Shown piece by piece: positions 6,211-63,012 of a DNA stretch of 64,000 nt. Origin of the DNA: Rhina ancylostomus (taxonomy: Eukaryota). Position numbers and translations under genes: made by a program. Each line of letters begins with the position of its first letter. Position 1 is the stretch's first letter. The stretch lies in contig JARFYF010000012.1 in the NCBI GenBank assembly GCA_030265395.1, positions 29,752,394 to 29,816,393 on the forward strand, given 5' to 3'. The notes under the pieces were generated by a model. The model ran no database searches, was not told where the DNA came from, and saw nothing but the letters and a program-made list of their open reading frames with translations.

Positions 6211-6534
<324 letters not shown>

Positions 6535-7654: not shown

Positions 7655-7800
7655 ACACAAGAGATTGCAGTGTGTCAGGCAGAATCTTTAGAGGGACAGT
7701 TGAAGTTTCAGGTCAAGACCCTTCACCTGGACTGGGAGAGTAGAGGGGAGGTAGCCAGTATAAAGAGGGGAGAGGTGGAACTCCTCTCCCAGTAGAGGGG
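7655..7800 (-). mobile_element. Penelope-like element terminal fragment with degenerate hammerhead motif
   Basis: Reverse complement reads tttatactggctacctcccctctactctccCAGTCCAGGTGAAGGGTCTTGACCTGAAACTTCAACTG, closely similar to the copy at 15700-15920. Confidence 0.7.
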
Positions 7801-8089
7801 AGAGGGTTTTTGAATTTTTTTAGGAGTGGTTGATTGATTTTGTTTTTGTAATGTCCTGTCCTGTGCTGCTGCTGCAAAAAGCTAATTCTCATGGCATTTA
7901 TACCCTGGGTATGTTTGCCCATGACAATAAACTTGAACATAACTTGATTAGCCAGGGCCTGAAAGGTTATTGGTGGTAAATGGAAATGCAAAGCTGAGGT
8001 TACAATTAGATTATCCAACAAAGTTGAGCAAGCTCAATGTGCTGAGTTGCCTGCTTCTGCTCCTATGTTTATAACCTCAGTGACACTGC

Positions 8090-9130
8090 CCTGAATTTTG
8101 TAGATGTGTAAACCGTGACCATGGTGCTCTAAGGATGTAGGGGGTGAAGGATAAGGATGGTGCCAATCAATCTGGTGTCTTTATCCTGGATGGTGTCTAG
8201 CTTCTTGAGGGTTGTTGCAGTTGACAATTCGGACATGTGGAATAGATTTCATCGCACTGAAGACATGAATCTTCTAAATGGCAGTTTCTAGGGAGGCAGA
8301 AGGTGAAACTCACACTCCAGAATATGTGTCCACTGACCTGTTGGAGGTGTTATGTAGTTTATCCAGTTATTTCCAAGTTGGTTTTAACTCCCAGGGGGTT
8401 GATTTATTTGTGGCAGTAATGCTGAATGGGGTAGTTAAGCTTGTTGGTATTTTCATTGCCCGACACTTGTATGGCACAAATGTCATTTGCGACCAAATAG
8501 TCTGTGATTGAATGTTGTCCAGCCAGTCCTGCATACAGGCACAAACAACCTTTTTATCTAAGCAATTACAAATAGAGCAGAAAGTTCTGCAGCCATCAAT
8601 TAAAAGAACCACTTGCAACACACAATGGAGAACATCTCATTGAAGCAGTGTATGATTGGACTTAAAAGCTACTAGATGACTTTGCGATAATTGGCTTCCC
8701 ATAGCCACCACTACCCTATTTTGTGTTAGCTGTAACTTAAAGCAGCGGAGAATCTCCTAAACATTTTATTTTATTAATGCTCCTTGCTCACCTTCTATCT
8801 TCATGACAAAACTATCACTCTTCCTCATTATCTGAACTTAGCCCAAGCGTGGACAGAAGTTCTAAGTCTATAATTAAGGCCAGAGCAGAGTGGTCCTAGT
8901 GAAACCAAAACTGAACATTAATGAGCAAATTATTAGCAAGTGCCAATTGATAGCAATGTCATTGACACCTTCCATCACTGCTAATAGATTGAGAGTAGAC
9001 TGGGGTGGCAATTAGCTAGATTGACATTAATCTGTTCTTTGGGCACAACATACCTGGACAACTTTTCACATTTTCTGGTAGACACCTGTGTTGAAGCTCT
9101 GCTGGATCAATTTGTCTGGGGTACAGCACA
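8090..9130 (-). mobile_element. Degenerate LINE remnant, family uncertain
   Basis: Shares blocks with 31330-32100 and 42720-43275 (e.g. tgttgcag/gagctgca, ctgaat.ttgtcc, cattaatgagca..ttatt). Confidence 0.5.
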
Positions 9131-10703
9131 AGCATTTGCCAACAAAGGATCTTGTTAAGGTTCATAGGTTGGGAATTCCCAAGCACCCATGTTTTTTTTA
9201 TATATACACTCAGTGTGTTGACTGAAAACTGGGAAAATGGAGGTGACCTCATGATATGAAAGATTTGCGCAGTATTTTTGGCTCAAGACCTAAAATACTT
9301 GTACAACATTAAAGATTAAAGTACTTCTCGATCTCAATGTATTGCCCTTGAGAGGTAGAGTTAATCTTTTAATTTTCTCTTGTTTCCAACTATGATCATT
9401 GGCCAATATGAATGAACTTTACTTGACATCTTAATGAGTTTGCATTCCTGTAGTTGGTCAACTAATTGTAGTCAAAATTCTTCTAATTCCACCCCATTGT
9501 ACTAAGAGTTATGAGGTGTCACTTGCATTAGCTACTGATAATTCTGTTGTATAAAATGTACCTTGTTAACTGAGTGAATCACATCACAGTGCCCCATCTT
9601 ATAGGTTTCATTTGTAATATTTCAGGAATTTAAAAGGATTTCTTCCATACTCTAAGTACTTAGACTTAAGGTACTGTATTATTAACAAAATCTGTCTGTA
9701 TTGGTTTATAATTTCCCTCCCTAAATTTAAACAGGGAAGCACTGACATGATCAACCTCTTTTGCTGTGCTATGTTGAGTCCAGAGTGTTGTAGGGCCAGG
9801 TTAGATGGCCAGATGAAAGTTAATTACAAGAGGAGTTTGAAGGGCATACAGAAGTTTATTTTTGAAGGACAATTCCAAAGGTTCAGTTATTAAAATAAGT
9901 TTTGACTGACTAAAAACTGTTATGGGTTATAATGAGTCATTAGTTCTATCAGTCAAGGCTGGATTCCAACTCAACTCAAAAGTTGTAGGTCAGAACAGAA
10001 AATTAATCACAGTTCCTTCCTCAATATGAAGTCAACTGGCACCAAGATTCCCCATAATTTTTGCAATTTATCATAAATTTTAATGTTCTTAACTCCAGAA
10101 CCAATATTTTATATTGGAACATTGGCAGAGTAATATTCAGTTTTTCAGAGGACTTCTGTTGATTTGGCTTCAGCCCACAATCTTTTGTTACAAGGATTAG
10201 TGTGCCCTACTTCTGCTGCCTGAGTATCCTTGGCTGATTCAGACTTATGTGATTTGTTCTTTGTGACTTGCATGTTAATTTGAATGTGTTGACTTAGAAA
10301 TCTGTCAAAAAGATTTAAAAACAAAACACTCAAGTCATTCTGGATCTGTGAAGTTAATATTTCAGGTGCAGCCTCTTTAATATTTTAAGGTATTTTAGAT
10401 AACCAACGTAAAATAAATAAAGTGAAGAAGTAAGTCAAGTTTCATACATTGAGGGAAGCAACTGAAACACTTGTAAGGTGCTCAAATGGAAAACAAGGTT
10501 CATTTAATTGGTGATATATATGAGACAGTACAAACATACGGAGAGAAATTCAACATCTGCAAGACACTAGTTTTGAACAGGCAGGTTAGGATGGGGAAGT
10601 GAGCGTGTCAAGCAAATAGAAGCATTGAAGACTGCCAATCTAGTGCAAGCCAGCCTAGAATGAAAAGGTGTTGATTATGTAACCATTTTCTTTATCTCCC
10701 CAG

Positions 10704-10874
10704 AAACGTGTTGTTAATATTTATCGATTAATAACAAGAGGAACCTTAGAAGAGAAAATCATGGGATTGCAGAAGTTTAAAATGAGCATTGCAAATACCG
10801 TTATTAGTCAAGAGAATGCAAGCTTGCAGAGCATGGGGACAGATCAGCTTCTGGATTTATTCACTCTTGATAAG
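10704..10874 (+). CDS. BTAF1: BTAF1 coding exon
   Basis: tctccccag|AAA...AAG|gtaatg, 171 nt. Encodes KRVVNIYRLITRGTLEEKIMGLQKFKMSIANTVISQENASLQSMGTDQLLDLFTLDK. Confidence 0.96.
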
Positions 10875-12458
10875 GTAATGTGGAAAAATTATTAAATTCT
10901 TTTCTCCAAACATATGCTTATTACTTGTTTAAAGGCAAAAGAGAACATGTACAAAATATATTGTTAAATTATTCATAATATATATCAGATTTTCTTTGCA
11001 TCAAAATAAATTTTATCACTTGCATGGATATGTCAAATTAGTTTGCTTTGTGCATCCATTAGTGTGTGATGTTCCCTGTGTATCATGAAGCAGTCCTAGA
11101 AATGCAAGCACTGTTTATTCACATTAGCCTACAGTTTGCTTGCACTTAATCCTAACAAACCATTCAGTCAAAAGTATGAATTTCCAAAACAAAATCACTT
11201 AATACTTGGAGATCCTTTAAGCCTGATGTTGTTATCTCCATACTAGTTTAATGCCTTCTTCCTCTGATGCTTGTGTGCTCAGTGAATTCAAATGAAACAA
11301 ACATTAAATCTTTCAATTTAGTTAAATGCTTTATTAATGTTTTATGGAGTCCATGTATACCTGGCTGGAGTCCATGTATGTTGAAGCTGTGGACTAACCC
11401 TCATCCATAAATATTTCCATTCATGACATTACTAAAGATCTTTACATTGAGGTGCCTGTAGATTCTTGAATGAGCAGTATTTATGCTGTGGTTTTTTTTT
11501 TCCCCCAAATGGTATACAGACTACATGTTGAATGTAAAGAATATCCAGGTTTTCCTTTTCCATCAATCTGTATGTTGTGAATTTGGAAAGGAGTTAGAAC
11601 CCATAATATTAATGTACTACCGCATGAATCCCGAGAACCTCTGTCAAGGCAGTTAACCGTGGCTTTTTGAGTGTTCTTGTATCTTAGCACCACTTTCAGC
11701 AAAACCAAAGTAGCAGCTTTTCCAAAATATTCACTACCTAGAAGGGTTAAAGTCAATAAGAGTTTATAATTTAAGAATCGTACTTATTATTCCACCTCAA
11801 ATGAACACGAGTAGAAATCTGTCAGTAATGGTATGTGTTCAGAAAAAATATATCGGTTTATTGTGAGGGAAAAGATTGAACTTTTAATGCTAGTTTTAAT
11901 GGGAGCATTGTATCTCCACTGAGTTCATTTTGAAAACTGACCTGTAGTCATTGCTATCCCATGAAATAGTATGACATGAATCAAGACTGATGCTTTCTGC
12001 TCAAGGGTTTCAACCCAAAACATCAACAATTCCTATCCCTGCACCCCCCCCCCCCCCCCACCCCNNNNNNNNNNNNNNNNNNNNNNNNNNNNNNNNNNNN
12101 NNNNNNNAATTGTTTGTTACTCCAGAAAGCACCTTTTTGTCTTTGGAAAACTGATGTGCCTGAGGGGAAGCACATAACACACATGAAAATGTGTGCATGT
12201 AATTTTAGGTATCTAGTGCTTAGAACTCTAATTGTAACAACTATAACTGGGGTTATATTTGGGTGAAAATGTGAAAACAGCACTAAATGGGTGCTATGCT
12301 AATGAGGCATCTTCATTTTAAAAAAAGTCTGGTTTTTGCTTGCACTTTTGATCATAATTCTCGTCAGTCCTCTGCAGGCAAATTAAAATAGGGTTACTTA
12401 AAAGTTTAGCATTCCATCATTGTTAGGCACGATTTTCATGGAGAAGCACACATGGCCT

Positions 12459-12483
12459 CCACTCTCACTCTCACTCTCACTCT
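12459..12483. repeat. (CACTCT)n microsatellite
   Basis: Four tandem CACTCT units. Confidence 0.9.
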
Positions 12484-13210
12484 ATGTTTAGAGAAAGCTG
12501 GTGGATAGGTATGCCCTATCCCAGGGAGGAACAGAGTGGAAACACTGTTTGGGTTCTAGGATGCATCACTGGAGGTTCTGGTGTGGGCACTCCAGATAGG
12601 GAAGAGTATCCTGTATTCACAGGGGGAAAAGATTGCACTTCTCTCCCTCCAGCCATTGTTATTGCTGCTGGACCTAGCCTTCCTTTTCTCCTGCAGGCCA
12701 GTCACTAAGCTGCAAATGACTAAACACTCCCTTTTCTCCTGGTGATTTCTATTAGGTGAGAAATAAAAAGGTGCTGTACTTATATGGAGAAAAAGTCTTT
12801 AGTAACAGACAACAAACTTGTCAGTTGCTCACTGCTCAAAGAGGGTATAATGCACATTACTAGCTATCAGACTGGCTTCTTTAATGATTGCCACTTAAAT
12901 CACCTGCTGGTGATCAGCATACTGTTTGTAGCACATGCTTCAGCTCAAGCCAAGATGTGTTATGGAACACAGTTTAAGTCACCATTTCTGCTTATAATTT
13001 CACCACCTCAGGCTATTTGGGGAAGTCTCTTTCTACAGTCAACAAAACTCTAGGTGAAACTGCAATGTACTTTTCATACATGCAACCATGGCTCATTGTT
13101 GGCTCATTAAATAACTGGGCTACTTACAGGTCATTGCTTATGTTAGAGCTGATGTGTGATTTTGATTGTGCAAAATACCTCTTTCTGATTACACTTTTTT
13201 TTACTTTAAG

Positions 13211-13351
13211 GATGGCCAAGAAAACAAGGGGTCTGGTTCCACAGAGAAGTCATCTGTAAAGGCAATCTTGGAAAACCTTGGAGAACTTTGGGATCAACAA
13301 CAATATGACACAGAATATAATTTGGATAATTTCATGCATTCACTAAAATAA
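13211..13351 (+). CDS. BTAF1: BTAF1 terminal coding exon
   Basis: ttactttaag|GAT. Encodes DGQENKGSGSTEKSSVKAILENLGELWDQQQYDTEYNLDNFMHSLK, then TAA. Matches the BTAF1/Mot1 C-terminal LWD..QY..EY.L..F motif. Confidence 0.96.
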   Translation, partial: DGQENKGSGSTEKSSVKAILENLGELWDQQQYDTEYNLDNFMHSLK

Positions 13352-13872: not shown

Positions 13873-13924
13873 AATAAAATTTCTGAAACCTCTAATCCAT
13901 GGCATTCCTTGGATCAAAAATAAA
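13873..13924 (+). terminator. Candidate BTAF1 polyadenylation signals
   Basis: AATAAA at 13873-13878 and 13919-13924, about 520-570 nt after the stop, followed by T-rich sequence. A further AATAAA is at 14095-14100. The site actually used cannot be determined from sequence. Confidence 0.5.
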
Positions 13925-27035: not shown

Positions 27036-29999
27036 ATCATGAATGCAAGGATGAGAATAGCAAAAGCTGGCTGTTAGGAACTTATTAACTGATCCAGCCT
27101 ATCAATCATCTGGACATCATGAGCGAGCTAAAGCAAACCCCCCTCCCCCCGCCCCCCAAAAAAAGTGAAGACATTAGGAGGAGCTCACCAGACATTTAAT
27201 CCAGCTACAGAAAATAATCTGGGAGCAGGGTAATAATTTATGACAACTTTCTAATCTCTCATTGCCTAAAGTGTACAATGCCTTCAACACCTTAACTGCA
27301 TTAAAATGGGCAGGGTAGATCCCTGCTGAAGGGACACCTTGTTAATGTGTCAAATGTGGAAAGAGCTTCAGAGAAAATTATTGAAAAATTCACACCACAC
27401 GACTAGTGACCGTCAGTTAATAACAGTCAGTCATTTTTCATTATTAATGTTATTTTGTTTGTTACCTTAGGAGTGCTCATATAGATGTGATACATTTTCT
27501 GATTTCCTCTGATGATTAGGCAATGCAACTACCTTAGTCACATAATATGTATTAGTCCATCATAAAATGATTAGCTCAACCATTAGTGCAATTTGGTATG
27601 GTAGATGTCAGGTGATTCAAATGCAATACAATTTAGGCATTCAATAAGCACTAGATGTGAACAGCAAGCCTCCAGATTCTTCTCTGATGAGCAGTTAAGG
27701 TGAATGGGTTAAAGATCCATCTGGTACCTTTTAATTAATATTCTCCACAATTTTTATGGGTTTACAATCACAGGATTTGTGCATTCCTATAAGCAGTGGG
27801 ATATACTTAGTAATATTCACAGTTAGTTAATCTGCAAAAAAAAAATCACACTTTGTGAATTACAGCAGAATTCTAACACTTCTATTCATTTAAGATACAC
27901 TTTTCAATGTTTTAGAAAGTTACGAGAGGCAATACAAAGGAAATAGAAATGTTAAATTAAAAATGGTTTGACAGTAATTGAATGATTACAAGATACTATT
28001 TGTTAAATGTTAACATCAAATTTTGTTCCATAAAGTAATTGTGTAGATTCTACAAACCTATTAATTATATCAGAATAAATGGGAGGCATATTAAATATTC
28101 TTGCAGATTATTGCAAAAGATTATTTGAATATCACACATATTCAATGCTTAAAAGGTATGATTTTACCATTGTGTAGAAGGAATAATTTTGTTCATTTTA
28201 TAATATGGATGACTAAAATATAGATTGCAGTGGATATTAAAATATTTTCCTTGTTTATCACAGCAAAGCTAGAAAATATTTTGTGAAATCCTATTCTAAT
28301 AAGATATTCACACAATAGCCACAAATGGGAGTCCTGCTGTTCAAAGAACAGAGAGCAGATGCCCTGAAAATGAAAGCAGCCACTTGGAAACTGCATTTCC
28401 TCAGCCACACACATTTCTGCAATCAGCACGATGCTCCAAATCTGCAATATTAATTAGTCACATTTGGCTGAAACATCCACATCAAGAAAAGTTGTCAAGA
28501 ACTCTGACTACATTTTTATCACAAATTCATTTCAAATGGAAGTAATTTCTTAAAACTTTGCTCCATCTACACACAATAGCAAACAGACTGCTCCTTCTCA
28601 GCCTTTATCACCTGGCCCATTTCCTCTGAGTGTTAATCAGGATCAAACATGCAAAATAAAAATTAGACTGATACTTCCAAAATGTCCTAATTAATTACTG
28701 AAATGGCTACCATACCATCTTTCCTGATAAACGGGCTTCAATTAGTTTTGTATCTGGATTAAAATGGAAATTAAAAAAAGTTGTCATATGTAATAAGCTG
28801 GGCAGAGAATTTGTTATATATAAACAAAAGCAGAACAACTTGAAATTATCTGTGTTCCCAGCACTGTATTAGCCATGGTACAAATCACAACACGCAGTAC
28901 CTAGAAGTTCAATCACATAATGCTGCCTTTATTAAGCACCATGCAACTGAAAACTAAATTCCCCACACACCTCACCCGAGTGTGGAACAAGATAATGACC
29001 ATTTCCAGTTTTTTTTAAACAGTCACGCTGAAAAATTCAACCAGATACCTTCAGGCATGAGGCACATTTGGCCAGCAGGAGGGGCACACAGGATAATGTC
29101 ATTCCCCATACAATGCTCCTTTTGGAGCACCATGTTGGAAGTAATACAATGTTTTCCCAGGTGTATCCACTATTGGTCAACTAGGTCTTCCCAAATTACA
29201 CCACACCTCAATTACTATCTTCAAACATAATTCTTGATACCCTACCCCATCACCCTGTGATGTTGCTTCTCGACTCCCAAACACAATGATCCATCCAGAC
29301 CCAAGGCCTTGATCTCCAGCACCACACTTCTACCCATTTCCTCACTGCAGCCCTGCATCCTCAAACACAATCCTGGACTGTCCTCCATGACCTTTAGTCA
29401 ATCATTACCTTTTGCTCAAGCAACACTCCCCACCTTCAGGCATAAGGGAAAAGATCAGATCCTTCCCTTCAGCACCCTCCAACCTTCCACCCTGATTCTT
29501 CCTGCATCCCACTGCACTGAAACCCCAAAGCATAGATTCCAATCTCTCCTTTCCAGCCTACCCACCCAACAAAGAGACTCTTATCCCTCTTCCCAATTTT
29601 AAGCCTTTCAAACCACGGTGCAGACCTGATATGTCTCCTAACCCCAGCATGGGATCAATTCACTCTTCCCCCATCCCCTATCTAAAGCTCGGGTACCAAT
29701 CCCTCTCCATCTCCCCAAACCATCACAACCCCAAGGACCTGGCCTCTTACACTACTTGAGTACACTAGAATTTTTAGACTAGTGTCTCTCTCCCACTGAT
29801 CAGTTGGATATTAAAAATGCTTCTTATCCTCATCTGCAAGATTAATACGAAGTTCTTTTGGAGTACTTAATGCAAAAGTTTTATCAACAAAAGAAAAGAC
29901 CTGACTTTTCCTGAACTAATTAGGTAGAGGTGACAGGAAAACCAAGAGCAAAGTAGAGAACTGTAAAGCAAACAAAATATTGAACTAAATGCAGGATCA

Positions 30000-40331: not shown

Positions 40332-41099
40332 CTTAGGGAATTAAAAAAAATTACAAGTAAAGCATAAGGCTATTGTAGAAGTCAGAAAATTGCAGCAACT
40401 TTCACTTACAATGTCCTCAACATAAAACCAGCCCCAAGGGCTTTAACTGGGAGAGATGGTGAGAGGTGACAAATTTAAATGTGTGGCACAGTTCAACGCA
40501 TTGGGTTTGATATGACATGAGATAGAGAGACAGAGAGATTTAAGGTAGTATTATTGACATCAAAACTGCAGATGCTGGAAATATGTAATAAAAACTGAAA
40601 GTGCTAGAAACACTCAGCAGATCAGACAGTATTAGTGGGAAGTGAAACAGAATTAACATTTCATCTTGAAGACCTGATGGGTATTTCCAGCATTTTATTT
40701 TTGCATTTTTCAGGGGATATGCAGTGTAGGTCCAAAGCAGCAAAAGCTCTTCCATTATGACTAAAACCAGGAAGGAAAGATTCACAAGAGCCTAGTCAAC
40801 AAAGATTGTGGAACAAGGGGTGTGATGCAGATTTGGAGAAAATGGCAGAGGTCAGATGAGGCAAGGACACTAACAGATTCATAGGATGACAAGGATTTGC
40901 TTTGGGAGGAGTGGAGGTTAGCAAGGACAATGGCTGAATGAGGCAAGTGTGGATCAGGAGTTTGTTCTGTTCTCACTGAGGACAACATCAAGACATCTAA
41001 ATCATTCCAATAACCAATCAAGTGGCTAATATCTAGAATGTTCATAACTGTTAAAAAGACCCAAAACTGATGTACAGAATTTGACCAAATTAAGAAATA

Positions 41100-42719: not shown

Positions 42720-43275
42720 CAGGATTTGTGTGTTGCTGACAAAGCCAGCATATGACAAAGCCATCCCTCACTGCTTGCAAGAAGGTGGTGAGCCACCTTC
42801 TTGAACCACTGTACTCCTTCTGGTAAAGGTAGCAAGCTTCAGGCTTAAGACCCTGCAACGACGAAGAACCCCCTGCAATAAATTCCCAAATTGGCACAGT
42901 GTGCAACTTGGAGAGGAGCCTGCAGGTGGTGGCATTCCCATATAACTGGTGCCCTTGCTCTCGATGGTAGAGGCTGTGGGGCTGGGGAGCTGGTATCAGA
43001 GTAGTCCGGACAAGCAACTATGGTACATTTTGTAGATGATGCACGCTGTAGCGTGCGTGCACTGGTGGTGGAGAGAATGAGTGCTTAGGGTGGTGCTAGT
43101 CGTGCGGCAGCATCCACTGATCTACCAATGTTGTTGGAGCTGCATCCACCCAGACAAGTGGGTGGTATTCCACCCAAGCTCCTGACTTGTGTCTCGCGAA
43201 TGGTGGAAAGGCTTTGTTGCGTTTTCCTCTTGATATTCATCGGCTTCAGTCTCACCAGGGCTCCTTGATGCCACA
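42720..43275 (-). mobile_element. LINE 3' fragment, family uncertain
   Basis: GC-richer block gaaggtggtgagccaccttcttgaacc...tgttgttggagctgca related to 8090-8300. Confidence 0.55.
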
Positions 43276-43279
43276 ATCT

Positions 43280-43414
43280 TGTGCCCCAGAGGGCGCAATC
43301 TTAGAATTAGAGGGAACAGGTTTAGAACAGAGATGAAGAGAAATTTTTTCAGCCAGAGGGTAGTAAGTTTATGGAATTCCTTGCCACGTACAGCAGTGGA
43401 GGCCAGATCATTGG
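43280..43414 (+). mobile_element. CR1-type LINE 3' fragment running into a gap
   Basis: Encodes RGRNLRIRGNRFRTEMKRNFFSQRVVSLWNSLP, the CR1 ORF2 C-terminal FF..RV...WN.LP motif. Confidence 0.85.
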
Positions 43415-43514
43415 NNNNNNNNNNNNNNNNNNNNNNNNNNNNNNNNNNNNNNNNNNNNNNNNNNNNNNNNNNNNNNNNNNNNNNNNNNNNNNNNNNNNNN
43501 NNNNNNNNNNNNNN

Positions 43515-43781
43515 TTAGCGTAATGCTTTACAGTGCCAGCGACCCAGGTTCAATTCCTGCCGCTGTCTGTAAGGAATTTGTACATTCTCCCTGTGTCGGT
43601 GTGGGTTTCCTCCCACATTCCAAAGACGTACAGGTTAGGAGCAGTGGGCATGCTTACACTGGCGCCGGAAGAGCGGTGACACTTGTGGGCTGCCCCCAGC
43701 ACATCCTCAGTAACTCAAAAAGACGCATTTCACTGTGCGTTTAGATGTATGTGTGACTAATGAATAAACATCTTATCTTAA
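43515..43781 (+). mobile_element. V-SINE-like tRNA-derived SINE
   Basis: B box GGTTCAATTCC at 43547-43557, V-domain-like tgtaaggaatttgtacattctccc...tttcctcccacattccaaagacgtacaggttagg, tail aataaacatcttatctt. Confidence 0.8.
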
Positions 43782-45819
43782 ATACCCCTTGACAGCACTG
43801 TCGAAGCACACAACATTTTGATGAGTTTTGATCAATGCATTATAAAACTTGCATTGACTTGTACTTATTGCTTTGAACAAAACTATCTACTGGGGACTTA
43901 AAGAATCTTCTGACATGATGCAAATATAACTACTGGGATTTATTGCATTTGTCTGTGCAAGTCCCTCTTTCTGGGCTGCTCTGGGAAGCCTGCCTGCTGA
44001 GCCAGCACCCTGTTAAACCAGGTGCAAGAGCTGCAGTCCTGTTCACATGAATGGAAGAAATGGAAAAACAGCTGGAAAAACTGAGCAAGTGTGTAATGAA
44101 CAACATCAGCAAGAGAGGTAGGGATGAGGCAATTAGTACTGACTGCAAAGTTAAAGGCAATAGCCTGGAGACAGGTGGATACTTCGGACTCTCCAACTTT
44201 GGTCCAGGAAGGATTGAGACCTTTAATTAATAGAGCAAGCCTCACCCTTTTCATTTATGAACTGCTTCAGTGGTCTTCCAGCCATAGTATAATTTAGCAC
44301 AAAAGGCGTCAAGTGAATGTTGTACATGACTCAATCTGCCTGTGCACCAGGATGTCATGCAAATAGCAGTCTTGAATAACCTCAGACTTTAGTCTCTTGT
44401 TTCAATCTAATAAGGACCCTCTAAGCCCAAAGGTTTGAGGATTTCTGGTTTAAACATTTAATGTGGTATCTACTATTATTTTAGTATCCCTTCCAGGTCT
44501 CCCCTAAATAATGCTACAACTATTATTAATATTTCTCAATGTTAAGTACCATTTTCTACACATTTACTGGACTGATCTAAATTCTTCTATAAATAGAACT
44601 CTATGAATTTGTATTACATGGTATTTGATTGACTGTGTCTGCTTGAACTGCCCTACATACTCCCCATAAACTTTATTTTTGTTCCACTGATTCAACGTCT
44701 TGCCTAAGTATTTTAATGGCCTCTGCCTCAGCTATTCTCTATAGCAAATCATTGAACATTGTAACAAATCCCATCGTAAAGATATTTCCTCCAAGCTCCA
44801 TCAATAAATGACAAATTAATAACCACTCATCCCCCATTCCTCTGAGTAAATGTTATTTCTTATTTACGTTATAAATTTATAAAACTAATTTTTGGTCTCA
44901 TTTTACTCTTTTCTTCTGCGGAAGTAGATCCCACAGTAAAAAATCTCTGTACCCTCCACATTCTTCTTTCCTAGTCTTTTCTATAATAGTGAGCAAAACT
45001 GAACTTTGGTTTGTCCTAACATAACTGAACTTTGATTTGCTTTGTGCAGATGCAAAACTGGCTTACGGCATTTGTACTTTATAATCATAGGTAGGAAAAG
45101 GGAGGGGTTCCTGCTGAAAGACTCCAAGAAGTTAGGCTGAAGAGACTGCAGATGCTGGGATCTGGAGCAACAAACCATCTGCTGGAGGAACTCCTTATTC
45201 AAGAGTAGAACCAAACATAATAATCTCTAGATATTGACAAATCAGGATAATAAATGCATGGCTAAAGGGCCANNNNNNNNNNNNNNNNNNNNNNNNNNNN
45301 NNNNNNNNNNNNNNNNNNNNNNNNNNNNNNNNNNNNNNNNNNNNNNNNNNNNNNNNNNNNNNNNNNNNNNNNATAATAAATGCATGGCTAAAGGGCCAGT
45401 CTAGGAAAGGGACTCCTTTTCAGAGAATGTGGCACCAGTTCTGGGAGAGGGAAGAGCTACATCAATGGGATAACCTTCACCTGAAATGGGAGGCAACACA
45501 TGTTCAGCAGAAAGACTAAATGGGGAGGCAACAAAGACTTTAAACTAATATTTAGCTGGGAGTAAGAATAGGGTAGACATGAAATTGGATGAAGAGAAGA
45601 AGAATAATGAGGTAAATGCATTTCAACTGGAAAGGGGAGATAACATTAATCAAACTCGAGGATAATAGAGCCACACATTTCAGAAAAATCAAGTGAATAG
45701 ACAGCAGAGGTATGACTGTACATAGGTAATTGTTCATTAGCAAGAGATGCAATGCAAGAGAACCAGTGGATAGCTCTGCAGCCAGCTTTGTCAAGGGAGG
45801 GATTAGACAGATGCATTAA

Positions 45820-46945
45820 AAACTCCTCGAAGGTTTTTGGTAAGAGAATGCAGGAAACAAGAAACAAGAAACAGAATGGTTTAACAGCTGCCTTCAGGAC
45901 TGAAAGAGGGTCGGGTGGAGGCAGGTGGGCAGTAATGTTCCACAAGGATTAGTGCAGGGACCACTGCTGTTCACAATTCACATTAATGGTTTACATATGA
46001 TACCAAATAGGGAAAGCTCTCAATATGAATGTGAACAAATTGCAGAAATGACATCAGCAATCTTGCAGAACAGGCAAATGAAGTTCATTACGAGGTAGTG
46101 CATTTTGACAGAAAGAACAAGGAAGCCATTTATTACTAGAAGGTACCATTTTAGGTGGGACAGGGGAACAAAGGGAACACCTAACACAATCATTAGAAGT
46201 TGTATCACTCTCTAGCAAGGCAATTAAAAAGGCAAATATCAAGGTTTATTTCTGAAGTGACTGAATTGGAAAGTAGGGTAATTATGCTAAAATTGTAATG
46301 AACCTTGGGAAGATCAGATGTACAGTACTGTACACAGTTCTAGCTGCTACGTTATGAAAAGGATACAGAGGAGAGGGTGCAAAGAAGACTTACATTGATG
46401 ATGTCAGCAACACAAGAGTACATATCTCAGGAAAGAACAGTGAGGTTGGATCTCTTTTCACTTGAGGAGGTGGATGAGGGTTGACCTAATAGAAGTCTCT
46501 AAAGTTATTAAAAATTTCAAAGAGTAGATACATAACATTTCCATTTGTGATTAAGAGGCAGTACAGTGGCGCAGCCAGTAAAGTTGCTACCTCATTGCAC
46601 TAGCGTCCTGGGTTTGATCCTGACCGCTGATGCTGCATGTTGTAGAGTTTGTATGTTCTCCCTGTGACCACATGGGTTTCCCCTGGGTCTTTTTTTTTAT
46701 TTTCTCCCAGATCCACTGACTACTGTAAATTGTCCCTGGTGCATGGAGAGTGTAGAGTCTGGGATCACAGTTTAAAAATAAAAGGGGTCACCCATTTATG
46801 ATCGGCAAGGCAATTTTTTTTCAGAGCATCATGAGATTTTGGAATTCCCTTCCTCAAAGGGTAGTGAAATCATTGCCTTTGTACATTTTTAAAGCAGAAT
46901 TACACAGATTCTTGTCAAGCAAGAGGGTGAAAGATTACAGGGCGC
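45820..46945 (+). mobile_element. Decayed CR1-type LINE interrupted by a SINE
   Basis: gtaatgttccacaaggattagtgcagggaccactgctgttc (VPQG.V.GPLLF-like) and FFQSIMRFWNSLP (ORF 46798). Confidence 0.75.
46553..46762 (+). mobile_element. HE1/V-SINE-like SINE nested in the CR1 copy
   Basis: A-box-like cagtggcgcagccagta, B-box-like ggtttgatcc, V-domain-like gagtttgtatgttctccctgtgaccacatgggtttcc. Confidence 0.75.
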
Positions 46946-49900
46946 CATCCACAGACCTCCCTGATGGTCTTCTGATATCTGCTGTCATGCTCACGCTTTC
47001 AGAAGCCTTTCCACCATTTCCAAATGACTTTGATGATCAGAAGCATTTACAACAGTTAAAAAAATATAAATAATTAAAATAGAAGTTTTGAAAACTAATA
47101 AACTGCAAATGTAATTTAAAAACCATACATACTGCAATAAAAATCTTTAAAACAATACTTAACAAAACTTTTTCATTCATAGATGCAAGAGTTTCATCTG
47201 AGAGAAGACAGAGGGCTCAGGTAAGTATAACCAGCTCTGCAGCTCAGCAGCTCAGCAACTCGCAGAATGCTCCTGGATTCAGTGTTGAGCCCAGGACAAA
47301 GCAAGTACAGGTCCTCCCTAGCTTAGAAACACCNNNNNNNNNNNNNNNNNNNNNNNNNNNNNNNNNNNNNNNNNNNNNNNNNNNNNNNNNNNNTTGCTGA
47401 TAGCTGCAGGCATCTTCTGCCATGTGGAAACTTGGTTCGTGGCCACATGTCCAACCTGTGAACTGTTTGGGTTATGACTGGAATTGCTGTAGAAGTCTGC
47501 CTACCGCCACCACCACCTGACGGGCAGTAAAGGGATGACTTTGTGAGCAACACCCAGGTCTCAAAAGTAATTATTTTGCAACGTCTAACTAGTTATTAGG
47601 ATTTACTTTCACCTGGATATACTGCCTTGCCTTCACATCATATGACCAACTGAAACAGAATGTATTTTTTTTAAGGAAATTGGAAAGGTGCACTGTGTCC
47701 TTTCACTATCTGGTTCAACAATGAATCCTGATTTGGAATTGCTTTGTTCTAAATTTAAAAAAAGCTCTAAATAAATCTAACCCCACAAGTATCTTTGCTT
47801 TCCTCTTCCCTGAAACATCTGATACACAGGAAATATGCAGACTTCTAATACTTACTCAGAATTGAATATGTTCACTGCCTTAATGAAAAGTAATTTAACA
47901 AAGTATGTGATGAACAATGAGCAAGACCAATAGAAGAGGCATTAGCAAATAACCTCTTATCAAAGACTTTGCAGACAAAAAAAGATAATTTTCTTGGGAA
48001 TTTATCACAAACATGAGGTGAATAATACAAAGGAACTAAAATGAGACTTTTTTCCTGGTCTTGTTCATAAGTTGGCTGAAAGGGTGCTTCTAAACCAATG
48101 CACATGAAAGACAAAAGTTCATCAACACATCCCAAGGCAAGTGTATGGTCAACTTGGCAATCAGACCAAGGGCCTGGGAAATACTTTGGTTGATACAAAA
48201 TCTTAATTGGTCAACTGATGACCAAGCAGCCTAGAAAATACTCAGAGGACGTCAATAAAAGACTTTTCTAGGTTAACAAAAGAAACACATTTTTAGTGAA
48301 TCATATTCAATGTGGGTATAGCTACAGCTTTTAAGTCATCACTAATGCTAACAGCATCCATTTTCAAAAAGTGAATTAACTAAACAGAATTTCACAGTGA
48401 GAAACAGATGAATTTCACCAGTTTCCAAAAAGCTGAAGGTCAATTCAGTCATCCTCAATAACAGCACTTCTGCACAGCTTTCCATCATTGTAAGGGTTAT
48501 GAAATGCAGCACCTACTCTCTCTCCATTCGTGAATAGGAGGACAATGCTGCATCAATGTTGAAAGGAAACAAACAATCTGACATCATCCAGCCAAGCTCA
48601 CATTTCAATGGAAATTTGGTAACCTGTTATATATCAGACAGCAAGAGTAAGGCAACTTCCTCTGGAGATGACACACTCACTGCCAATCACAAAAAAAACC
48701 CTTCCTTCCACAATCAGCAAGCCTATTGAGGATGCACAGGTATATGAAAAATAAAATAAGCATTTGTTTCTGCCCCTCACCTTACCATTTCCCATATCTG
48801 TTCCTCCATGTTATACAATTAATAACTAATTTTTTTTAGGATATGCAAAGTCTAAAGCCCTTTGGGCGGCTGGCTACATTGATCTACTGGGCGATTGAAG
48901 CACAAAGCAGGAAGATCAAAGGAGAAGAAAAAAGCTACAGATGCCGAGCTTCAAAAAACACACTCAAAGTGCTGGAGATACAGAAAGGGTCAAGTAGCAT
49001 TATAAAGAAAAACACATTAACATTTCAGAAATGGGCTCTTCCAACAAATTTCCATCAGCTTTTTTGATTCCATTTACAGATGCTGCTTGGCCTAATGAGG
49101 GTTATCGGTTTCATTTTCAATTGAGGATGATAGAGCTAGGACCCCGAATTTGCGCTCAGGTTGCCACACTCAGCCTTTATGGTAGCAGGGCTGTAACAGT
49201 GTATTTCACCATCATAATGTTTATGAGGGGAAATGAAAACAATTAATTGCAACTCTTCATGCAAAAGGAGGTATTAATACAAACTGGAATTAGAGTACTG
49301 CAGCCAAATTGCCTCATGGCTACCACTGTTGAGGTTCATCCACAAGATGCAGCAACTTAGAATATGTTACGGTCAGAAAATCATGCAAACATAGAGTAAA
49401 GGGAAGAAAGTTACATTAATGCAAGACTCAACTCCGGCCTCACTGAGCTTGCTTTAAGTAACACAGAACAGTGAAAGTAAGGGAATTCATGCCATCTCCA
49501 AAGTTGATGTGAGAAAGGAATAGAAATTCAAATTAGACTATTCTTGTGCACTGCACAGCAGGTGGTTCCAATTGGTAAAACCCTAGAAACATGCCAACTT
49601 TAAACACTTTTCCCTTCTTGCCCCATCCACAGTGAACACAAGAACCCAAAAATGGATGTGGGAATTTCTTATGGCAGAGTTTCCATTTAGTAATATAATT
49701 TACTACAAATCCTTGAAAATATTTTGCAACAATCTTTTGCTTTAAATGCACTTTGTAATTCAGCTATGTATAATAGAAATCACTCAGCACGAGCATCTCT
49801 TTCAAATTCATCCCAATTCTTCATAAAATTCATGCTACCTGCTTAAAACTAAAATTGTGGCCTTTCAAGCAGTACAAATACTCCATCTTTGGCACCAAAC

Positions 49901-56600: not shown

Positions 56601-57344
56601 CTGTAAAACAGTTTACACTTTGATCTAGTGAAAACAAACCTGAAAATTATTCTGGAACTTCAATTGATGTTTCCTATTTCTCCCACAGGCCTGAACTTCG
56701 CATTGTCACCAATTTGTTAATGCTCAGCATGAAGATGTAACTGTAGAAGAATACATTTACTTTTAATTACAGGCCATATTAATACACTGTTTTGTTTAAA
56801 AAAAGGTGATGTTGGTAAAGTTTAAAAGTTTATCATTTCCATCAAAATGTTTCTTTCAAAAATATCACAGCTGTTTGTCACACACAAAAGAGGAAGCAAA
56901 CAAAACCTATGATGAACCTAAACTTTTAGCTGAATAATGCTAGAAACTATATGTCAACTTTGGTGCTGTATGAAAGGTTAATTGGATATTTCTGGATTCA
57001 GCAGTCTGGTTAAAGTCCAACGTCAATTCAAGTAGGTGTTCTTTGTAACAAACTCTTTGGAAGGAAAAAGGGAGAAGACAAGTACTTTTCCTTGTAACAA
57101 TACATATTTAAGAATTTCTCAATTGCAACTCACTGTTGGATAAATACTGAAAGAATATTAAGATATAAATACATTAAAATGGCCATTAGAAGCTTATTGG
57201 CACAATGTTCACACAAAAATAATAAAGAACTGCTAACAAAGATGTTCTCCAGGTATTCTGTTCTAAAGTTATGAAATAAAAGGTCCACTTGCCAATATCA
57301 AGTAAACTGCTTCAGCATTCATGTAACTGAATGGAGATACAGCA

Positions 57345-57715
57345 ATAAACTTCAGACTTCAGCCAGCTCCAACACGGGCACAACTCTCCCCGCCATCAAG
57401 GGCATCTTCAAGAGGCGGTGCCTCAAGAAGGCAGCACCCATCATTAAGGGCCCTCACTATATGCAACACGCCCTCTTCACGTTACTACCATCGAGGTGGT
57501 GGTACAGGAGCCTGAAGACCCACATTCACCATTTNNNNNNNNNNNNNNNCCCTCCTCCATCACATTTCTAAATGGTCTATGAACACTACCTCGTTATTCC
57601 TCTTTTGCACTATTTCTTATAGAAACTTACAGTAACTTTGTCTTGCACTGTACTGCTGCCACAAAGCAACAAATTTCATGACATATGTCAGTGATAATAA
57701 ACCTGATTCTGATAC
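57345..57715 (+). mobile_element. LINE 3' fragment (Rex1/Babar-like)
   Basis: GC-rich coding-like block (LPAIKGIFKRRCLKKAAPIIKGPH...LFTLLPSRWWYRSLK) followed by the tail gtgataataaacctgattctgat. Confidence 0.6.
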
Positions 57716-58639: not shown

Positions 58640-58922
58640 ACATAGAACCATAGAACAATACAGCACAATACAGGCCCTTCGGCCCACCATGTTGTGCCGC
58701 CCATCAAACCACACCTCNNNNNNNNNNNNNNNNNNNNNNNNNNNNNNNNNNNNNNNNNNNNNNNNNNNNNNNNNNNNNNNNNNNNNNNNNNNNNNNNNNN
58801 NNNNNNNNNNNNNNNNNCACTGGTGCCCTGGGAAAGAGGCGCTGGCTGTCTACTCTATCTATCCCTCTCAACATTTTATACACCTCTATCATGTTTCCCC
58901 TCATCCTCCTCCTCTCTAGTGA
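58640..58922 (-). mobile_element. Young CR1-type LINE 3' end (contains a gap)
   Basis: catagaaccatagaacaatacagcacaatacaggcccttcggcccac tail. ORF 58704 encodes FSLERRRMRGNMIEVYKMLRGIDRVDSQRLFP. Confidence 0.9.
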
Positions 58923-60364
58923 GAAAAAGTCAAAAATGCAGAACATCTATTGATCACCAACAGAGGAACATAGGGAACAGGTATTGTTTGTTCAGCCCTT
59001 CAAGTCTGCTCCCCATTCATTAAGATCTTAGCTGTTCTATGACCTAATACCATATCCCAATGACTTTGGTTAACAAAAATTTCTTTCAGATTTAAATTTA
59101 ACAATTGACCCAGAATCAGTTATTGCTTGTGGTAGTTTCCCAAACTTCTATGACCCTGTGCATTTGGAAGTGTTTCCTAACTTTGCTTCTGAAAGTTCTG
59201 CCTCTAATGTTTATGCCCTATAGTCCCAAAGCCAAACCAGAAGAAATGATTAACACAAACCTTTATTTCTGACACAACAACTGAGCAAAAAGACCCAAAT
59301 TAAATCATTAACTTACCATGATCATTGGCCAAGATATGTTTATCCTTTTATAAATAGAGCATCAAGCACAGGTTCTTGACCCAAGTTACATGCCTTAATG
59401 CATTCTACAGCTTAAGTATGACTTTAAAAATTATATTAGTATATATTTTAATGTATAGCTTACATACAACAATTAAGATGAACATAGTGAAGAGACAGCA
59501 GAATTAAGTAACTCAATTAAATCACTTGGGGAAGTGTATTAAAGCAGTAGCACATAAAGGTAGTCAATTAGGTGATTTGTCCTGAATAACCTACACTGGA
59601 GTATGTGTAGCCTTATGGATTACTGACGCAAAGAAGGAATGTGTTCCTGAATGGTTATAGGTACTTAAGTGCATCTTGCAAACCATCAAGCCACCCGACT
59701 GAATGGAAATCAAGGGGAATTCATGAGGAAATACTGAGAACATTTATATTGGTTCCTCCCCAGGTTTAAAAATGTCCTTTTTCTGGTTTCCTTCTGCCAC
59801 CCACGCTGTCCAGATGGAGGTGGTGAGCAGGCATTAAAGCCTCTAGCAAATACACCGGAGACATGGGATATTCTATAATAGATCTGGTCTCTCTCCTACA
59901 GGGAAGCACTTGATTTGCACTCAAACACTCCCTCTGGACATCATGACTGGAATCTTTTAAAAAAACACTTAAACAACAAAATGAAGTACATTTATGTCAA
60001 ACAAAATACTAGACTCAAAGGAGATCTCATAATTGTTTTCAAACTAACTGCTGATGAATAATATTTCTTGAGCTACATTTAAAAACCCATTAGATTCTAC
60101 AATTTTAGAAAGAAACACAAATTAATTTTATCTAAACTTATGAAAGAATTTTCAGAGCAACAAACTGGAACCAACCAATTTCAGACCATTTGATGTTCAC
60201 TTTAGCATTTAGGGTAATTCCAAAAGGACGAGAAAGTAAATTAAAATTGTGGTAATTAACCGGAAGTTAATAATAGCAACTGGAAAATGTTAATCACTCC
60301 AGTATAGCATTGAAATGTTATTTGATTGGAAAAGCAAACACTTGAATATTAAAAGTTACTTTAC

Positions 60365-60388
60365 CTCTTCGCCGCCCAAATGTCCTTG
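60365..60388 (-). CDS. CPEB3: CPEB3 24-nt microexon (B region)
   Basis: atttttctttgtttacatgcag|CAAGGACATTTGGGCGGCGAAGAG|gtaaagt, phase 1-1. Encodes xRTFGRRR(G), matching the R[ST]YGRRRG microexon of CPEB2-4, and joins in frame to GRSSLF. Confidence 0.92.
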
Positions 60389-62494
60389 CTGCATGTAAAC
60401 AAAGAAAAATTGGGTAGTCCTGTCACCTATTAAACATTTAATCTTTTCATGAAATGCGCACAAAATTCACATGATATGAAGCAATTCATCGTCAAATCTA
60501 CCTGTGGAGGTGTTTCAGAGATACATAAAAATATAATTTTACCTTTTTTTTAAAAAAACTATTCTCGCCAAACTAGTTTTGAAACTTTTCACTACTATCC
60601 CCCTTGCTTTGTCAAATGCAACAAATAAACTGGGTTGGAAGAGGCTGCAAACAGGTTCCCATTTAAAAAAAATCACTCATGCTTCCTCCAGATAGACTAA
60701 AGTTGATCTAGTACGTAACTAAACAGAGAAACTGTATTATATTTGTGCAATCAGTATTTCTGACTGAGGAACTAACTTCTAACCCTACAACAGAATTAAA
60801 CCAGCTTGATTTACCTGGGGGGGGGGGGGGGNNNNNNNNNNCCCCCCCCCCAGAAAATAAATGAGCATGAACTTTGATTAATCTGTTTTGTAACCATTCA
60901 TTACCATTCATAACCACACTATGTTAAAAATTGGGGAAAAGCACATTTAAAAAAAAGTTTAAATGCTCCCCAACATCACTAGTATCTTCCTGTGACGATA
61001 TCAATCCCAGTTGCTTGTGCATACTTGTACAGGTCCTACATCCTCAACAATCAAAAGTGATGGTTCCTGCACCATCATTTAAAATACATCTTCATCTGCT
61101 CATCCTCCTCTTTGTACATCCGTGTAAAGAGGAATCTGGACGTTACTATCTTTAAGGTCCTGAGAGTGCATTTGTCCCTTAAATTAAAATTTGTTTACAA
61201 GTCAAAGTTGTTGGTACCTATATGAACCACAAACCTTGCTGTTCACCTTTCCATCTCTGAATGTTTAAAGTACACTTATTTAAATGGAAAATTTTCATTT
61301 TGTGAACAACGTTGTCAAATCTTTAAAGGTAATCCAGAAAGGGTTTCAGCGATGTGAAAAATACATTTTTTTTATAGAAAGGAATTATAATCTTATAATT
61401 CATCACGGAAACACATGAACAGTTTAGTAAATGAGAACCTGCAACACTTGAGTTCACACATTTAAATGTGATCCATCACAATAATCCAAGTTAGCTCAAA
61501 TCAAACAAATCCTTATTGATAAAAAAAAATGTGCTTTGGATTATTCTTGATTACAAAATACATTCAAAGATAAACTTATAATATTATTAAATATTTAAAA
61601 TGCAATTAGCAGTGATCTGTGGAAAAGGTTAATGTGCAGTGCCTAAACCAGATTCTTCCCTGCAGGTTTCTGTTTTGCAGAAAATAGAACTTAATTCAAT
61701 CTCATGCTTATTATATAGGACTTCCTTGGGCTATAAACTTTGTGCTGACTTACCTCTGTACTCAACATAGAAGCAGAATTGTGGCTCACCTATAAATTGA
61801 TTTATCAGCCTTCATCACCTGGCTGCTAAAGGAGGCAACACTAATGAATGCAGGAACATCAGAGACCAATTTTGGTAGTTCACAAACAAAAAAAAAGGAA
61901 TTCAGTGCCTAAAATAAAACAGTTAATTTACATAATTTAAATTTCACTGACATCTAAATAGGGGTAATGGAATTATCAAGTTGTTAAATAGAAACTGGTA
62001 TGATTCTGCTATCTCCATTAACCCTACATCTGGATCTCCCCATTTTCTCTTTACTTGCCTCATTATTAACCCAATTTACCTTGCATAAATATCCCTTTTG
62101 TCACACAATCCCAAGTTCTAACTATCACAGACACCTGAAAGTAGAAATTGCTTCCGTGGATTTGGCTGCATGAATTATGTACTAACCTCCGTTCACCATG
62201 CCATTGCATATGAATATTGCCAAAACAACTTTTATTTGGATTAATAACATTCAAAACAAACCTCACCTCCCTTCATATTCAAATTTTCTACCTGAGCAAA
62301 CCTGACTGTGATGAAATGCTGCCTCCAGTGGGGTCATCCACAGGGAGCAGACAAGAACAAGTTGAGTCAACAAAGCAACATTAATTTAGTAAAGTGTCCC
62401 AAATACTTCAACAACGAAAAAGAACGTGTGCCTGATATTTCATGGGTAGATTTGCAAAGGCATTGAAAGCATGACTGCAGAAGATGGTTTTTAA

Positions 62495-63012
62495 AGAACA
62501 ATAAACAATACCTCATCTTCCACCTTGGGGGTCTCCAACATTGATGTGGCCTCAAAGATCAATTTCTCCAACCGGTTAACCCCACCCTTTCTTCTCCTTC
62601 CCTCCCCTCCCCCCGACTTCCCTTATTCCTGTGGTTCCCTTCCCCCACCTTGATAACCAGTCCATCTCCTCTCCATCCTTTATTCCATGGCCCACTGCCC
62701 TCTCCAACCAGATTCCTCCTTCTTCAGCCCTTTGCCTCTTCTACCTATCAGCTTATCACATCTTATCCCCCTCCCCCACCCACCTACCTTCCCCGTTCTN
62801 NNNNNNNNNNNNNNNNNNNNNNNNNNNNNNNNNNTCACTTGGACTCACTTATCACCTGTCTCCGTGTGCTCCTCCCCCACCTTCTTATTCTGGCTTCTGC
62901 CCTCATTCTTTCCAGTCCTGATGAAGGGTCTTGACCCAAAATGTCAACTGTTTATTTCCCTCCATGGATGCTGCCTGACCTGCCGAGTTCCTCCTGCAAT
63001 TTTTGTGTATTG
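62495..63012 (+). mobile_element. Penelope-like retroelement 3' end with hammerhead motif
   Basis: 62503-62538 encodes KQYLIFHLGGLQ, resembling the end of a PLE GIY-YIG endonuclease. Then a pyrimidine-rich UTR, the hammerhead motif at 62913-62950 and the tail gatgctgcctgacctgccgagttcctcc. Confidence 0.75.
62913..62950 (+). ncRNA. Minimal type I hammerhead ribozyme motif (CpG-decayed, probably inactive)
   Basis: CAGTC-CTGATGA-A-GGGT-CTTG-ACCC-AAAA-TGTC-AACTG: stem I, intact CUGAUGA, stem II, GAAA mutated to AAAA, GUC cleavage triplet. Confidence 0.65.

Follow-up and report, generated by a model that had tools for sequence, protein, structure and literature searches.

The window analysed here, a 64,000-nt stretch of DNA from Rhina ancylostomus, contains a dispersed repeat family whose copies are located inside or near two genes, BTAF1 and a CPEB gene. 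The four copies of a hammerhead-like motif listed in the initial annotation were all recovered (Table 1), and a search using the 62913 copy as query gave family scores of 104, 69 and 55, whereas three shuffled windows scored 30 at best. Their reported setting was also borne out, with a pyrimidine-rich tract 5' of the motif (C+T of 0.62–0.86 per 50-nt bin, profiled in three of the copies) and a related tail 3' of it (69 of 86 positions identical between the 62913 and 15881 copies). At least six further fragments are present in the window, and the density in this single window is about one fragment per 6–8 kb. The fragments are approximately 35–515 nt long and every one covers the same 3' segment, so that they have the form of 5'-truncated copies; they differ from each other by about 20%, and two or more subfamilies are visible, as had been proposed. 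The family consists of scattered, broken retrotransposon tail ends which are mostly ordinary repeat, and a working motif is found in no copy here.

Table 1. Members of the hammerhead-bearing repeat family and associated features in the window.
Feature	Position	Strand	Remarks
Decayed hammerhead, subfamily 1b	7697-7734	-	Position 4 is A, with A6G and a broken palindrome; BTAF1 intron, antisense
Whole 1b insertion	7661-7859	-	About 120 nt of upstream sequence common with the 15.6-kb copy (55 vs null maximum 35)
Truncated decayed copy, variant helix II	11995-12044	+	E 0.046 (non-seed match); ends into poly-C and gap
Decayed copy with internal deletions	14088-14166	-	E 0.0094 (non-seed match)
Probable inverted partner of 14088-14166 copy, borderline	14308-14344	+	E 0.021; 31 vs null maximum 34
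Whole 1b insertion	15614-15985	+	43 nt at 15715-15757 repeated exactly at 15858-15900, 100-N gap between
Decayed hammerhead, subfamily 1b	15881-15918	+	Core position 4 is A and position 17 is G
Subfamily 2 insertion, approximate extent	32150-32505	+	Pyrimidine tract and tail
Decayed hammerhead, subfamily 2	32405-32443	+	Antisense in CPEB intron
Subfamily 2 copy without 5' half of core	40560-40675	-	E 2e-8 (non-seed match); distal ~30-nt extension present
Inverted, more truncated partner, head-to-head with 40560-40675 copy	40670-40725	+	E 0.004; 36 vs null maximum 30 of 300
Tail-only fragment with distal extension	45140-45194	-	38 vs null maximum 27
Old subfamily 2-like copy (GAAA half and tail)	48945-49028	-	E 0.0013
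Candidate Neptune-type GIY-YIG domain end, last ~25 codons	62497-62578	+	Stop and frameshift; suggestive only
Presumed 3' UTR / pLTR part, pyrimidine-rich	62579-62912	+	C+T 0.69-0.86 per 50-nt bin; 35-N gap inside
Decayed minimal type I hammerhead, subfamily 1a	62913-62950	+	CUGAUGA intact
Shared 3' segment behind 1a ribozyme	62951-63012	+	Without distal extension

The proposal that an intact hammerhead consensus can be reconstructed from these copies was not borne out in the form given: a plain majority of five copies does not match the published descriptor even when two core mismatches are allowed, but a version in which four CpG sites are restored matches it with none. GAAA, a palindromic 15.2–16.2 and a UH cleavage site are all present in the CpG-restored consensus, while all three occur together in none of the single copies, and the restored sequence agrees with the consensus given in PMC4209133, including the extra base, the G10.1–C11.1 pair, the palindrome and a 5' flank rich in U. 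This additional base, which lies between positions 9 and 10.1 (A in three of four copies and T in the other), had been raised as a caveat, but as PMC4209133 lists it as conserved in the published class, this doubt becomes a point in favour of the hammerhead reading. Loop 2, previously given as CUUG, is most likely to have been CUCG in the ancestor (the states in the copies are TG, TG, TG and CA). Helices I and II each have 3–7 bp in the published class. Helix I is 5 bp in both the restored subfamily 1 motif and the 15881 copy (72% of cells paired over five copies), and in helix II 96% of cells are paired, with a first pair that is GC in two copies, GU in two and unpaired in one. The whole structure is paired in 84% of cells compared with 14–44% when it is slid. 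We consider it very likely that the ancestral element carried a small self-cutting RNA.

The present copies are damaged, and core positions have been lost in every one, as the initial annotation noted. CUGANGA is found in the 62913 and 32407 copies with an A at position 4 in the 15881 and 7697 copies; the 62913 copy has lost G12, the helix III palindrome and G1.1 through CpG-type changes, the 15881 copy retains GAAA and the ACGU palindrome and has helices I and II in its predicted minimum-energy fold (z -3.1), and the subfamily 2 copy at 32407 has U at 17, a U-A innermost stem I pair, a 5-bp helix II and a 3-nt loop. In the restored motif, G12, the palindrome of helix III and the cleavage site all coincide with CpG sites, and this placement accounts for the damage in every copy. 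Positions 11.1–12 read TG in five and CA in three of all eight copies, and positions 15.2–16.2 read CG, TG or CA in seven of the eight (both counts include three copies that were positioned by eye using GAAA); the CpG observed/expected ratio of the window is 0.18. CpG bases have changed in 11 of 24 cases and other bases in 2 of 90 (Fisher test), a comparison which is partly circular and was given no weight.

Searches of the raw window with the type I descriptor, suggested initially as a check, returned no matches at zero or one core mismatch and two matches at two core mismatches, one of which is the 15881 copy. An Rfam scan of the window likewise found no hammerhead at E ≤ 5 (three unrelated weak matches were returned) and no CPEB3 ribozyme. 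Stem covariation, which had been named beforehand as a feature to be expected of the family, was not significant, as 174 of 500 shuffles attained the observed score and 31 of 500 the observed percentage paired; two pairs showed two-sided compensatory change, which was reached by 220 of 500 shuffles in a comparison of five sequences only that is confounded by CpG decay. RNAalifold retained helix II alone, one of the four copies folded better than shuffles, and the restored motif had a predicted energy of -19.3 kcal/mol as a hammerhead-type dimer compared with -34.9 kcal/mol as an alternative duplex under a model that ignores core tertiary contacts.

These results allow an accidental likeness, in which an ordinary hairpin repeat is made to look like a hammerhead by picking bases from degenerate copies, and such a choice was needed in five columns of the initial consensus: columns 7 (core position 4), 25, 26 and 30 are 2:2 ties amongst the four copies, and column 34 runs 3:1 against the base that was chosen. 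The absence of any copy matching the descriptor at zero or one mismatch, the single copy in four that folds better than shuffles and the lack of significant covariation count in favour of this explanation. However, CpG sites of the restored motif account for four of these five columns, where the copies show the decay products TG or CA, and the motif was never obtained from 1500 shuffled consensus sequences given the same freedom, and we regard accidental likeness as very improbable. It is more improbable still that one or more of the copies are working ribozymes domesticated by the host in BTAF1 or CPEB introns. Conserved intronic hammerheads are described in amniotes (PMC6155905) and the copies do lie in or near these genes, but the core positions lost from every copy follow neutral CpG decay, both of the core-bearing copies in mapped introns (7697 and 32407) are antisense to the host gene, and there is no dimer partner nearby other than a probable assembly duplicate.

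The initial annotation assigned the family to Penelope-like elements (PLEs), and this is supported by a PLE-like insertion anatomy and by the fit of the ancestral motif to the PLE minimal hammerhead; a link to an RT or GIY-YIG ORF was not found. We infer the connection from structure, in that the copies have their 3' ends in common, are truncated 5', include one clear inverted pair and carry an optional tail; an inverted truncated partner and an optional tail are described in PMC8557442 as hallmarks of PLE insertions. Inverted partners were above the null for one of three candidates, namely the clear one at 40.6 kb; the candidate at 14.2 kb was borderline and that at 49.0 kb (49.07–49.1 kb) was rejected as not significant, as was a further copy at 14.46–14.5 kb, which likewise did not exceed the null. 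The distal extension of approximately 30 nt is common to the 40640 and 45170 ends (two of nine ends; null fraction 0.0003–0.001) and is marginal in the 49028 end (null fraction 0.025–0.05), with the other six ends not above the null. No true partial tandem or pseudo-LTR pair was found in the window, which only full-length loci need have. The 15715/15858 tandem was rejected as a true dimer because its 43-nt units are 100% identical compared with about 20% divergence within the family, and because the pattern recurs at another 100-N gap (exact flank duplicates occur at two of four such gaps); the duplicate (15715–15757 and 15858–15900) is probably an assembly overlap.

The 24 read-through frames examined 5' of eight copies contained no Pfam families, and the absence of an ORF is expected of truncated copies. 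The translation of the candidate ORF end at 62497–62578 (approximately 80 nt) resembles the Neptune endonuclease end by eye (Fig. S2 of PMC8557442), and a motif scan for it, with 14 matches in the window compared with a shuffled mean of 8.9 and 0.33 expected in the upstream zones, was not above chance; it also had no match in a database. Pfam also gave no matches for a C-rich ORF at 29261, a 25-aa piece at 62467 and two LINE-like ORFs. The C-rich region (29261–29599) was rejected as an old piece of PLE ORF after returning nothing at E ≤ 10 and uninformative atlas matches.

As no evidence for a PLE protein passed a test and a single inverted pair is clearly above the null, the repeat might instead be the 3' end of another, non-PLE retroelement (LINE or SINE) that carried or had captured a hammerhead. 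We find this improbable because the form lacking helix III with an extra base is described as a PLE-specific architecture (PMC4209133), and the inverted partners and optional tail are PLE features (PMC8557442, PMC11167929). It is probable, in our judgement, that the copies are dead 5'-truncated insertions of the 3' end (pseudo-LTR) of an endonuclease-bearing PLE, probably of Neptune type, with at least three subfamilies and a minimal type I hammerhead in the source element.

Subfamily 1b differs in its core. Position 4 is U in two copies and A in the two that share upstream sequence, which suggests that a subfamily whose core is non-canonical may have spread. The copies may derive mainly from short non-autonomous elements (SINE-like or retrozyme-like) which borrowed PLE enzymes and in which the hammerhead was vestigial in at least one subfamily, 1b. 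The 15881 and 7697 copies share both A4, which involves no CpG site, and the upstream sequence, with no coding sequence detected upstream of either; PLE-derived non-autonomous elements have been reported in vertebrates including one chondrichthyan (10.64898/2026.07.22.740005), and insertion in vitro was not impaired by mutation of the hammerhead of an anole PLE (PMC11167929). On the other hand, A4 is seen in two copies only, autonomous PLEs are reported to leave short 5'-truncated ends as well, and neither a tandem array nor a tRNA head was found, and we think this origin unlikely. It overlaps with the endonuclease-bearing PLE origin, the difference being what was mobile.

Returning to an origin from an endonuclease-bearing PLE, the source motif would have had a helix I of 4–5 bp, CUGAUGA, one extra base, a helix II of 4–5 bp, GAAA and the palindrome ACGU as helix III, with cleavage after GUC or GUU. 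By analogy with other PLEs, two motifs in a tandem transcript would pair through the palindrome, probably aided by a protein of the element, and cleave the precursor RNA, which the RT and GIY-YIG nuclease of the element would then copy from near the 3' end. Copying would usually stop early, leaving short ends that at times have an inverted partner or the optional tail. Methyl-CpG deamination after insertion would strike G12, the palindrome and the cleavage site, and because of this no copy here should cleave.

More tentatively, and less likely than not, subfamily 1b could be a PLE-derived lineage that multiplied in rays with a fixed A4 core, with the placement of the CpGs acting as a fast methylation off-switch for inserted ribozymes. 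If so, 1b would be either a natural experiment on a genome scale, showing that PLE-driven retrotransposition in vivo can do without hammerhead cleavage, or a new active core variant, and the off-switch could account for a large part of the variability of vertebrate PLE hammerheads within genomes, which PMC4209133 describes as hard to explain by mutation at the DNA level. The presence of U4 and A4 subfamilies in one genome could be used to test the need of PLEs for the ribozyme in vivo; canonical hammerheads are reported to be absent from some PLE clades (PMC8557442).

Outside the window, a homologue search with the translated 3' segment gave no candidates, no match to it was found amongst 1.84 billion representatives, and its sole atlas match (0.76) was uninformative. 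The core motif had no matches in GTDB genomes, and three matches to the tail motif there were rejected as chance, being on actinobacterial contigs of 66–68% GC with no flanking similarity. A PLE expansion in introns has been reported for the whale shark (10.1101/443036), which is an elasmobranch like the present host.

The family resembles the vertebrate Neptune and Poseidon EN+ PLEs (PMC8557442, PMC11167929) in its 5' truncation, inverted truncated partner, optional 30–40-nt tail and hammerhead near the 3' end, but the window differs from these in having no ORF, true tandem or pLTR pair, or clade-diagnostic linker, so that the assignment to a clade is tentative. It is also like the animal non-LTR retrozymes (10.64898/2026.07.22.740005, PMC7229834), which are described as non-coding, PLE-related and bearing type I hammerheads, with dispersed monomers and a report from one chondrichthyan genome; however, retrozymes are defined there by tandem arrays in which every unit has a complete hammerhead, and the window contains no such array and no complete hammerhead. 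Thousands of dispersed single copies of PLE hammerheads have been described in fish, coelacanth, frog and reptiles (PMC4209133). Unlike the motifs of that set, Table S1 and Fig. S3 of which include no chondrichthyan, no individual copy here matches the descriptor, most of the variation is due to CpG decay, and A4 seemingly characterises one of the subfamilies. Nevertheless, the ancestral motif shares with the minimal hammerheads described there the short helix I, CUGANGA with the extra base, helix II opening with G-C, GAAA, a palindromic 15.2–16.2 without a real helix III, the UH site, the U-rich 5' flank and the occurrence mostly as single dispersed motifs from truncated PLEs, and many of the chordate motifs listed end in C G U C/U as it does. 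As this class, the dimer model and the dispersed single copies are already published, the gain is taxonomic: if our reading is correct, rays join the vertebrates with abundant PLE hammerheads, where abundance across the genome is an extrapolation from one window.

The four copies of the hammerhead-like motif reported in the initial annotation (called 7697, 15881, 32407 and 62913 after their start coordinates) were all located, and when 62913 was used as a local alignment query the other three scored 104, 69 and 55 against a shuffled-window best of 30. A profile built from these four and a second profile round run on the window recovered further fragments, for which the decoy controls gave best E-values of 1.4 and 0.93. 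A 43-nt stretch at 15715–15757 is an exact duplicate of 15858–15900 on the other side of a 100-N gap, and we considered a tandem ribozyme pair here. Exact flank duplication across such gaps is typical of scaffold overlap artefacts, and as two of the window's four 100-N gaps carry duplicates of this kind (43 nt at 15715–15900 and 26 nt at 45247–45398), we rejected the pair and read it as an assembly overlap. Searches of protein homologue collections, the atlas and GTDB genomes yielded no copies of the family from beyond the window.

Features located in the window, with strand and basis of assignment
Feature	Position	Strand	Basis
Motif copy, subfamily 1b	7697-7734	-	Initial annotation
Motif copy, subfamily 1b	15881-15918	+	Initial annotation
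Motif copy, subfamily 2	32407-32441	+	Initial annotation
Motif copy, subfamily 1a	62913-62950	+	Initial annotation
Repeat fragment	40589-40664	-	First profile round, E 2e-8
Repeat fragment	14113-14153	-	First profile round, E 0.0094
Repeat fragment	11995-12043	+	First profile round, E 0.046
Repeat fragment	48959-49028	-	Second profile round, E 0.0013
Repeat fragment	40670-40704	+	Second profile round, E 0.004
Repeat fragment	14308-14344	+	Second profile round, E 0.021
Tail-only fragment	45140-45194	-	Score 38, null maximum 27
BTAF1 3' exons	1-13348	+	Exon mapping
CPEB-family gene 3' exons	~56640 down to 22649	-	Exon mapping
Other repeat family, decayed 3' ends	30831-31129, 36884-36931, 38133-38625, 43234-43518, 46756-47073, 58852-58927		Presumed CR1-like LINEs, by peptide and 3' UTR
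Short repeats	43574-43610, 46645-46681, 5202-5231		Presumed likeness to V-SINE/HE1-type SINE central domain
C-rich stretch with 113-codon open frame	29230-29760	+	
Candidate old retroelement fragments, family not assigned	8080-8200, 42712-43017, 57275-57571	-	ORF list and sequence inspection

No copy is a hammerhead in its present state. An Rfam scan of the window gave no hammerhead at E≤5, and the published descriptor for minimal type I hammerheads of Penelope-like elements (PLEs) (Cervera and De la Pena, PMC4209133 Fig. S7) had no match at zero or one core mismatch and two at two mismatches, one of them 15881. The proposal that the copies together reconstruct an intact consensus did not stand as written, as it had to settle four columns split 2:2 and overrule a 3:1 majority in a fifth. 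Four of these five choices sit on dinucleotides that bear the marks of methyl-CpG decay. Once the CpGs were restored, the five-copy majority satisfied the descriptor at zero mismatches, which none of 1500 shuffled sequences given equal freedom did, and this restored motif agrees with the published metazoan PLE hammerhead consensus. Decay of CpGs also accounts for the core damage that had been noted in every copy, while the other caveat, an extra A before stem II, falls away because PMC4209133 lists the base between positions 9 and 10.1 as a conserved feature of PLE hammerheads.

Positions 11.1–12 read TG in five copies and CA in three (8/8), and 15.2–16.2 read TG in five, and CG, CA and CT in one each; the weakest site is 17–1.1 (CA in three and GG in one of the subfamily 1 type, TA in three of subfamily 2). 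Three copies were anchored by eye for these tallies. Loop 2 reads TG, TG, TG and CA across copies, which makes CUCG the probable ancestral loop. These CpGs coincide with G12, the general base of the hammerhead (PMC6155905), with the helix III palindrome and with the cleavage site, and insertion into methylated DNA would thus destroy the ribozyme quickly. The window copies are best read as fossils.

Several structural results count against the motif. Over five copies, covariation was not above shuffles (the score was reached by 174/500 and the percentage paired by 31/500), although the hammerhead structure was 84% paired compared with 14–44% in slid controls. RNAalifold retained helix II alone, and only 15881 of the four copies folded better than its own shuffles. 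Helix II with the restored loop (62926–62937 and equivalents) is nearly self-complementary and could, in the folding model, pair between two molecules; ViennaRNA gave this duplex a more favourable energy (–34.9 kcal/mol) than the restored motif paired as a hammerhead-type dimer (–19.3 kcal/mol), in a model that gives no score to the catalytic core.

Core position 4, the fifth of the consensus choices, lies outside any CpG: it is U in 62913, 32407 and 11997 and A in 15881 and 7697. The two A4 copies also share some 120 nt upstream (score 55, null maximum 35), which suggests a subfamily in which a non-canonical core is fixed. A natural U4C variant has much reduced activity according to PMC3088659, the examined passages of which do not mention U4A, and our literature search found no relevant report of a U4A variant.

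Protein evidence for a PLE is weak. Pfam found no family in 24 read-through frames upstream of copies. On the strand of 62913, some 410 nt before that copy and where the pyrimidine-rich tract begins, the sequence translates to a short peptide starting KQYLIFHL which resembles the C-terminal end of the Neptune endonucleases (PMC8557442, Fig. S2); this likeness is suggestive only, the peptide being one of 14 window matches to the motif compared with a shuffled mean of 8.9, and 0.33 expected in the upstream zones. The structural evidence is better. The fragments all span one 3' segment with variable 5' truncation, and two copies at 40.6 kb are joined head-to-head (36, null maximum 30), with an inverted pair at 14.2 kb borderline and another at 49.0 kb below significance. 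Two of nine ends have in common a distal extension of about 30 nt, which is marginal in a third and undetected in the other six. Inverted partners and an optional 30–40-nt tail are described as PLE features (PMC8557442, PMC11167929), and a preprint reports that PLEs have expanded in whale shark introns (10.1101/443036).

The window DNA is elasmobranch, with 46 residues at 13211–13348 sharing 100% identity with BTAF1 of Mobula hypostoma, 98% with Pristis, 96% with Heptranchias, 91% with Narcine and 82% with Callorhinchus. Its CpG observed/expected ratio of 0.18 is depleted, as is expected of methylated vertebrate DNA. BTAF1 lies tail to tail with the CPEB-family gene, which by synteny is presumably CPEB3; Rfam gave no match to the mammalian CPEB3 HDV-like ribozyme in the window, and the intron carrying it may fall outside. 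We note that 7697, 32407 and 62913 retain most of the core and run antisense to the host gene, which for 62913 requires the CPEB gene to reach beyond 56640. No intronic copy on the sense strand (11997, 40640, 45170 and 49028) has a usable 5' half of the core; so few copies do not allow a test for selection against sense ribozymes. Among the other repeats, two of the CR1-like fragments had no Pfam match, and for the open frame in the C-rich stretch at 29230–29760, possibly a piece of a very old retroelement ORF, Pfam, the homologue search and the atlas all gave no match.

What is seen directly in the window is 3' ends and their decay. By analogy with the class, two minimal hammerheads in a tandem PLE transcript would meet via the ACGU palindrome and cleave slowly, as described for such pairs (PMC4209133; review PMC6765202), and the element's reverse transcriptase and nuclease would then deposit short 3' ends. 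It should be noted that in the sole PLE reconstituted in vitro cleavage required the element's protein, and insertion did not require cleavage (PMC11167929).

The ribozyme class is already known, and this family may already be in Lunse et al. 2016, Repbase or Dfam; it is the candidate A4 subfamily, together with the proposed CpG off-switch, which deserves a genome-wide look. Our literature searches found no paper on hammerhead ribozymes of cartilaginous fish, on Penelope hammerheads of sharks only one in which 'shark' refers to a head shape, and only a plant review for hammerhead CpG decay. PMC4209133 describes about 4,000 motifs for coelacanth and 9,000 for Xenopus, most of them single. Chondrichthyans are absent from Table S1 and Fig. 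S3 of that paper, and a 2026 preprint (10.64898/2026.07.22.740005) reports hammerhead retrozymes in the sole chondrichthyan it sampled.
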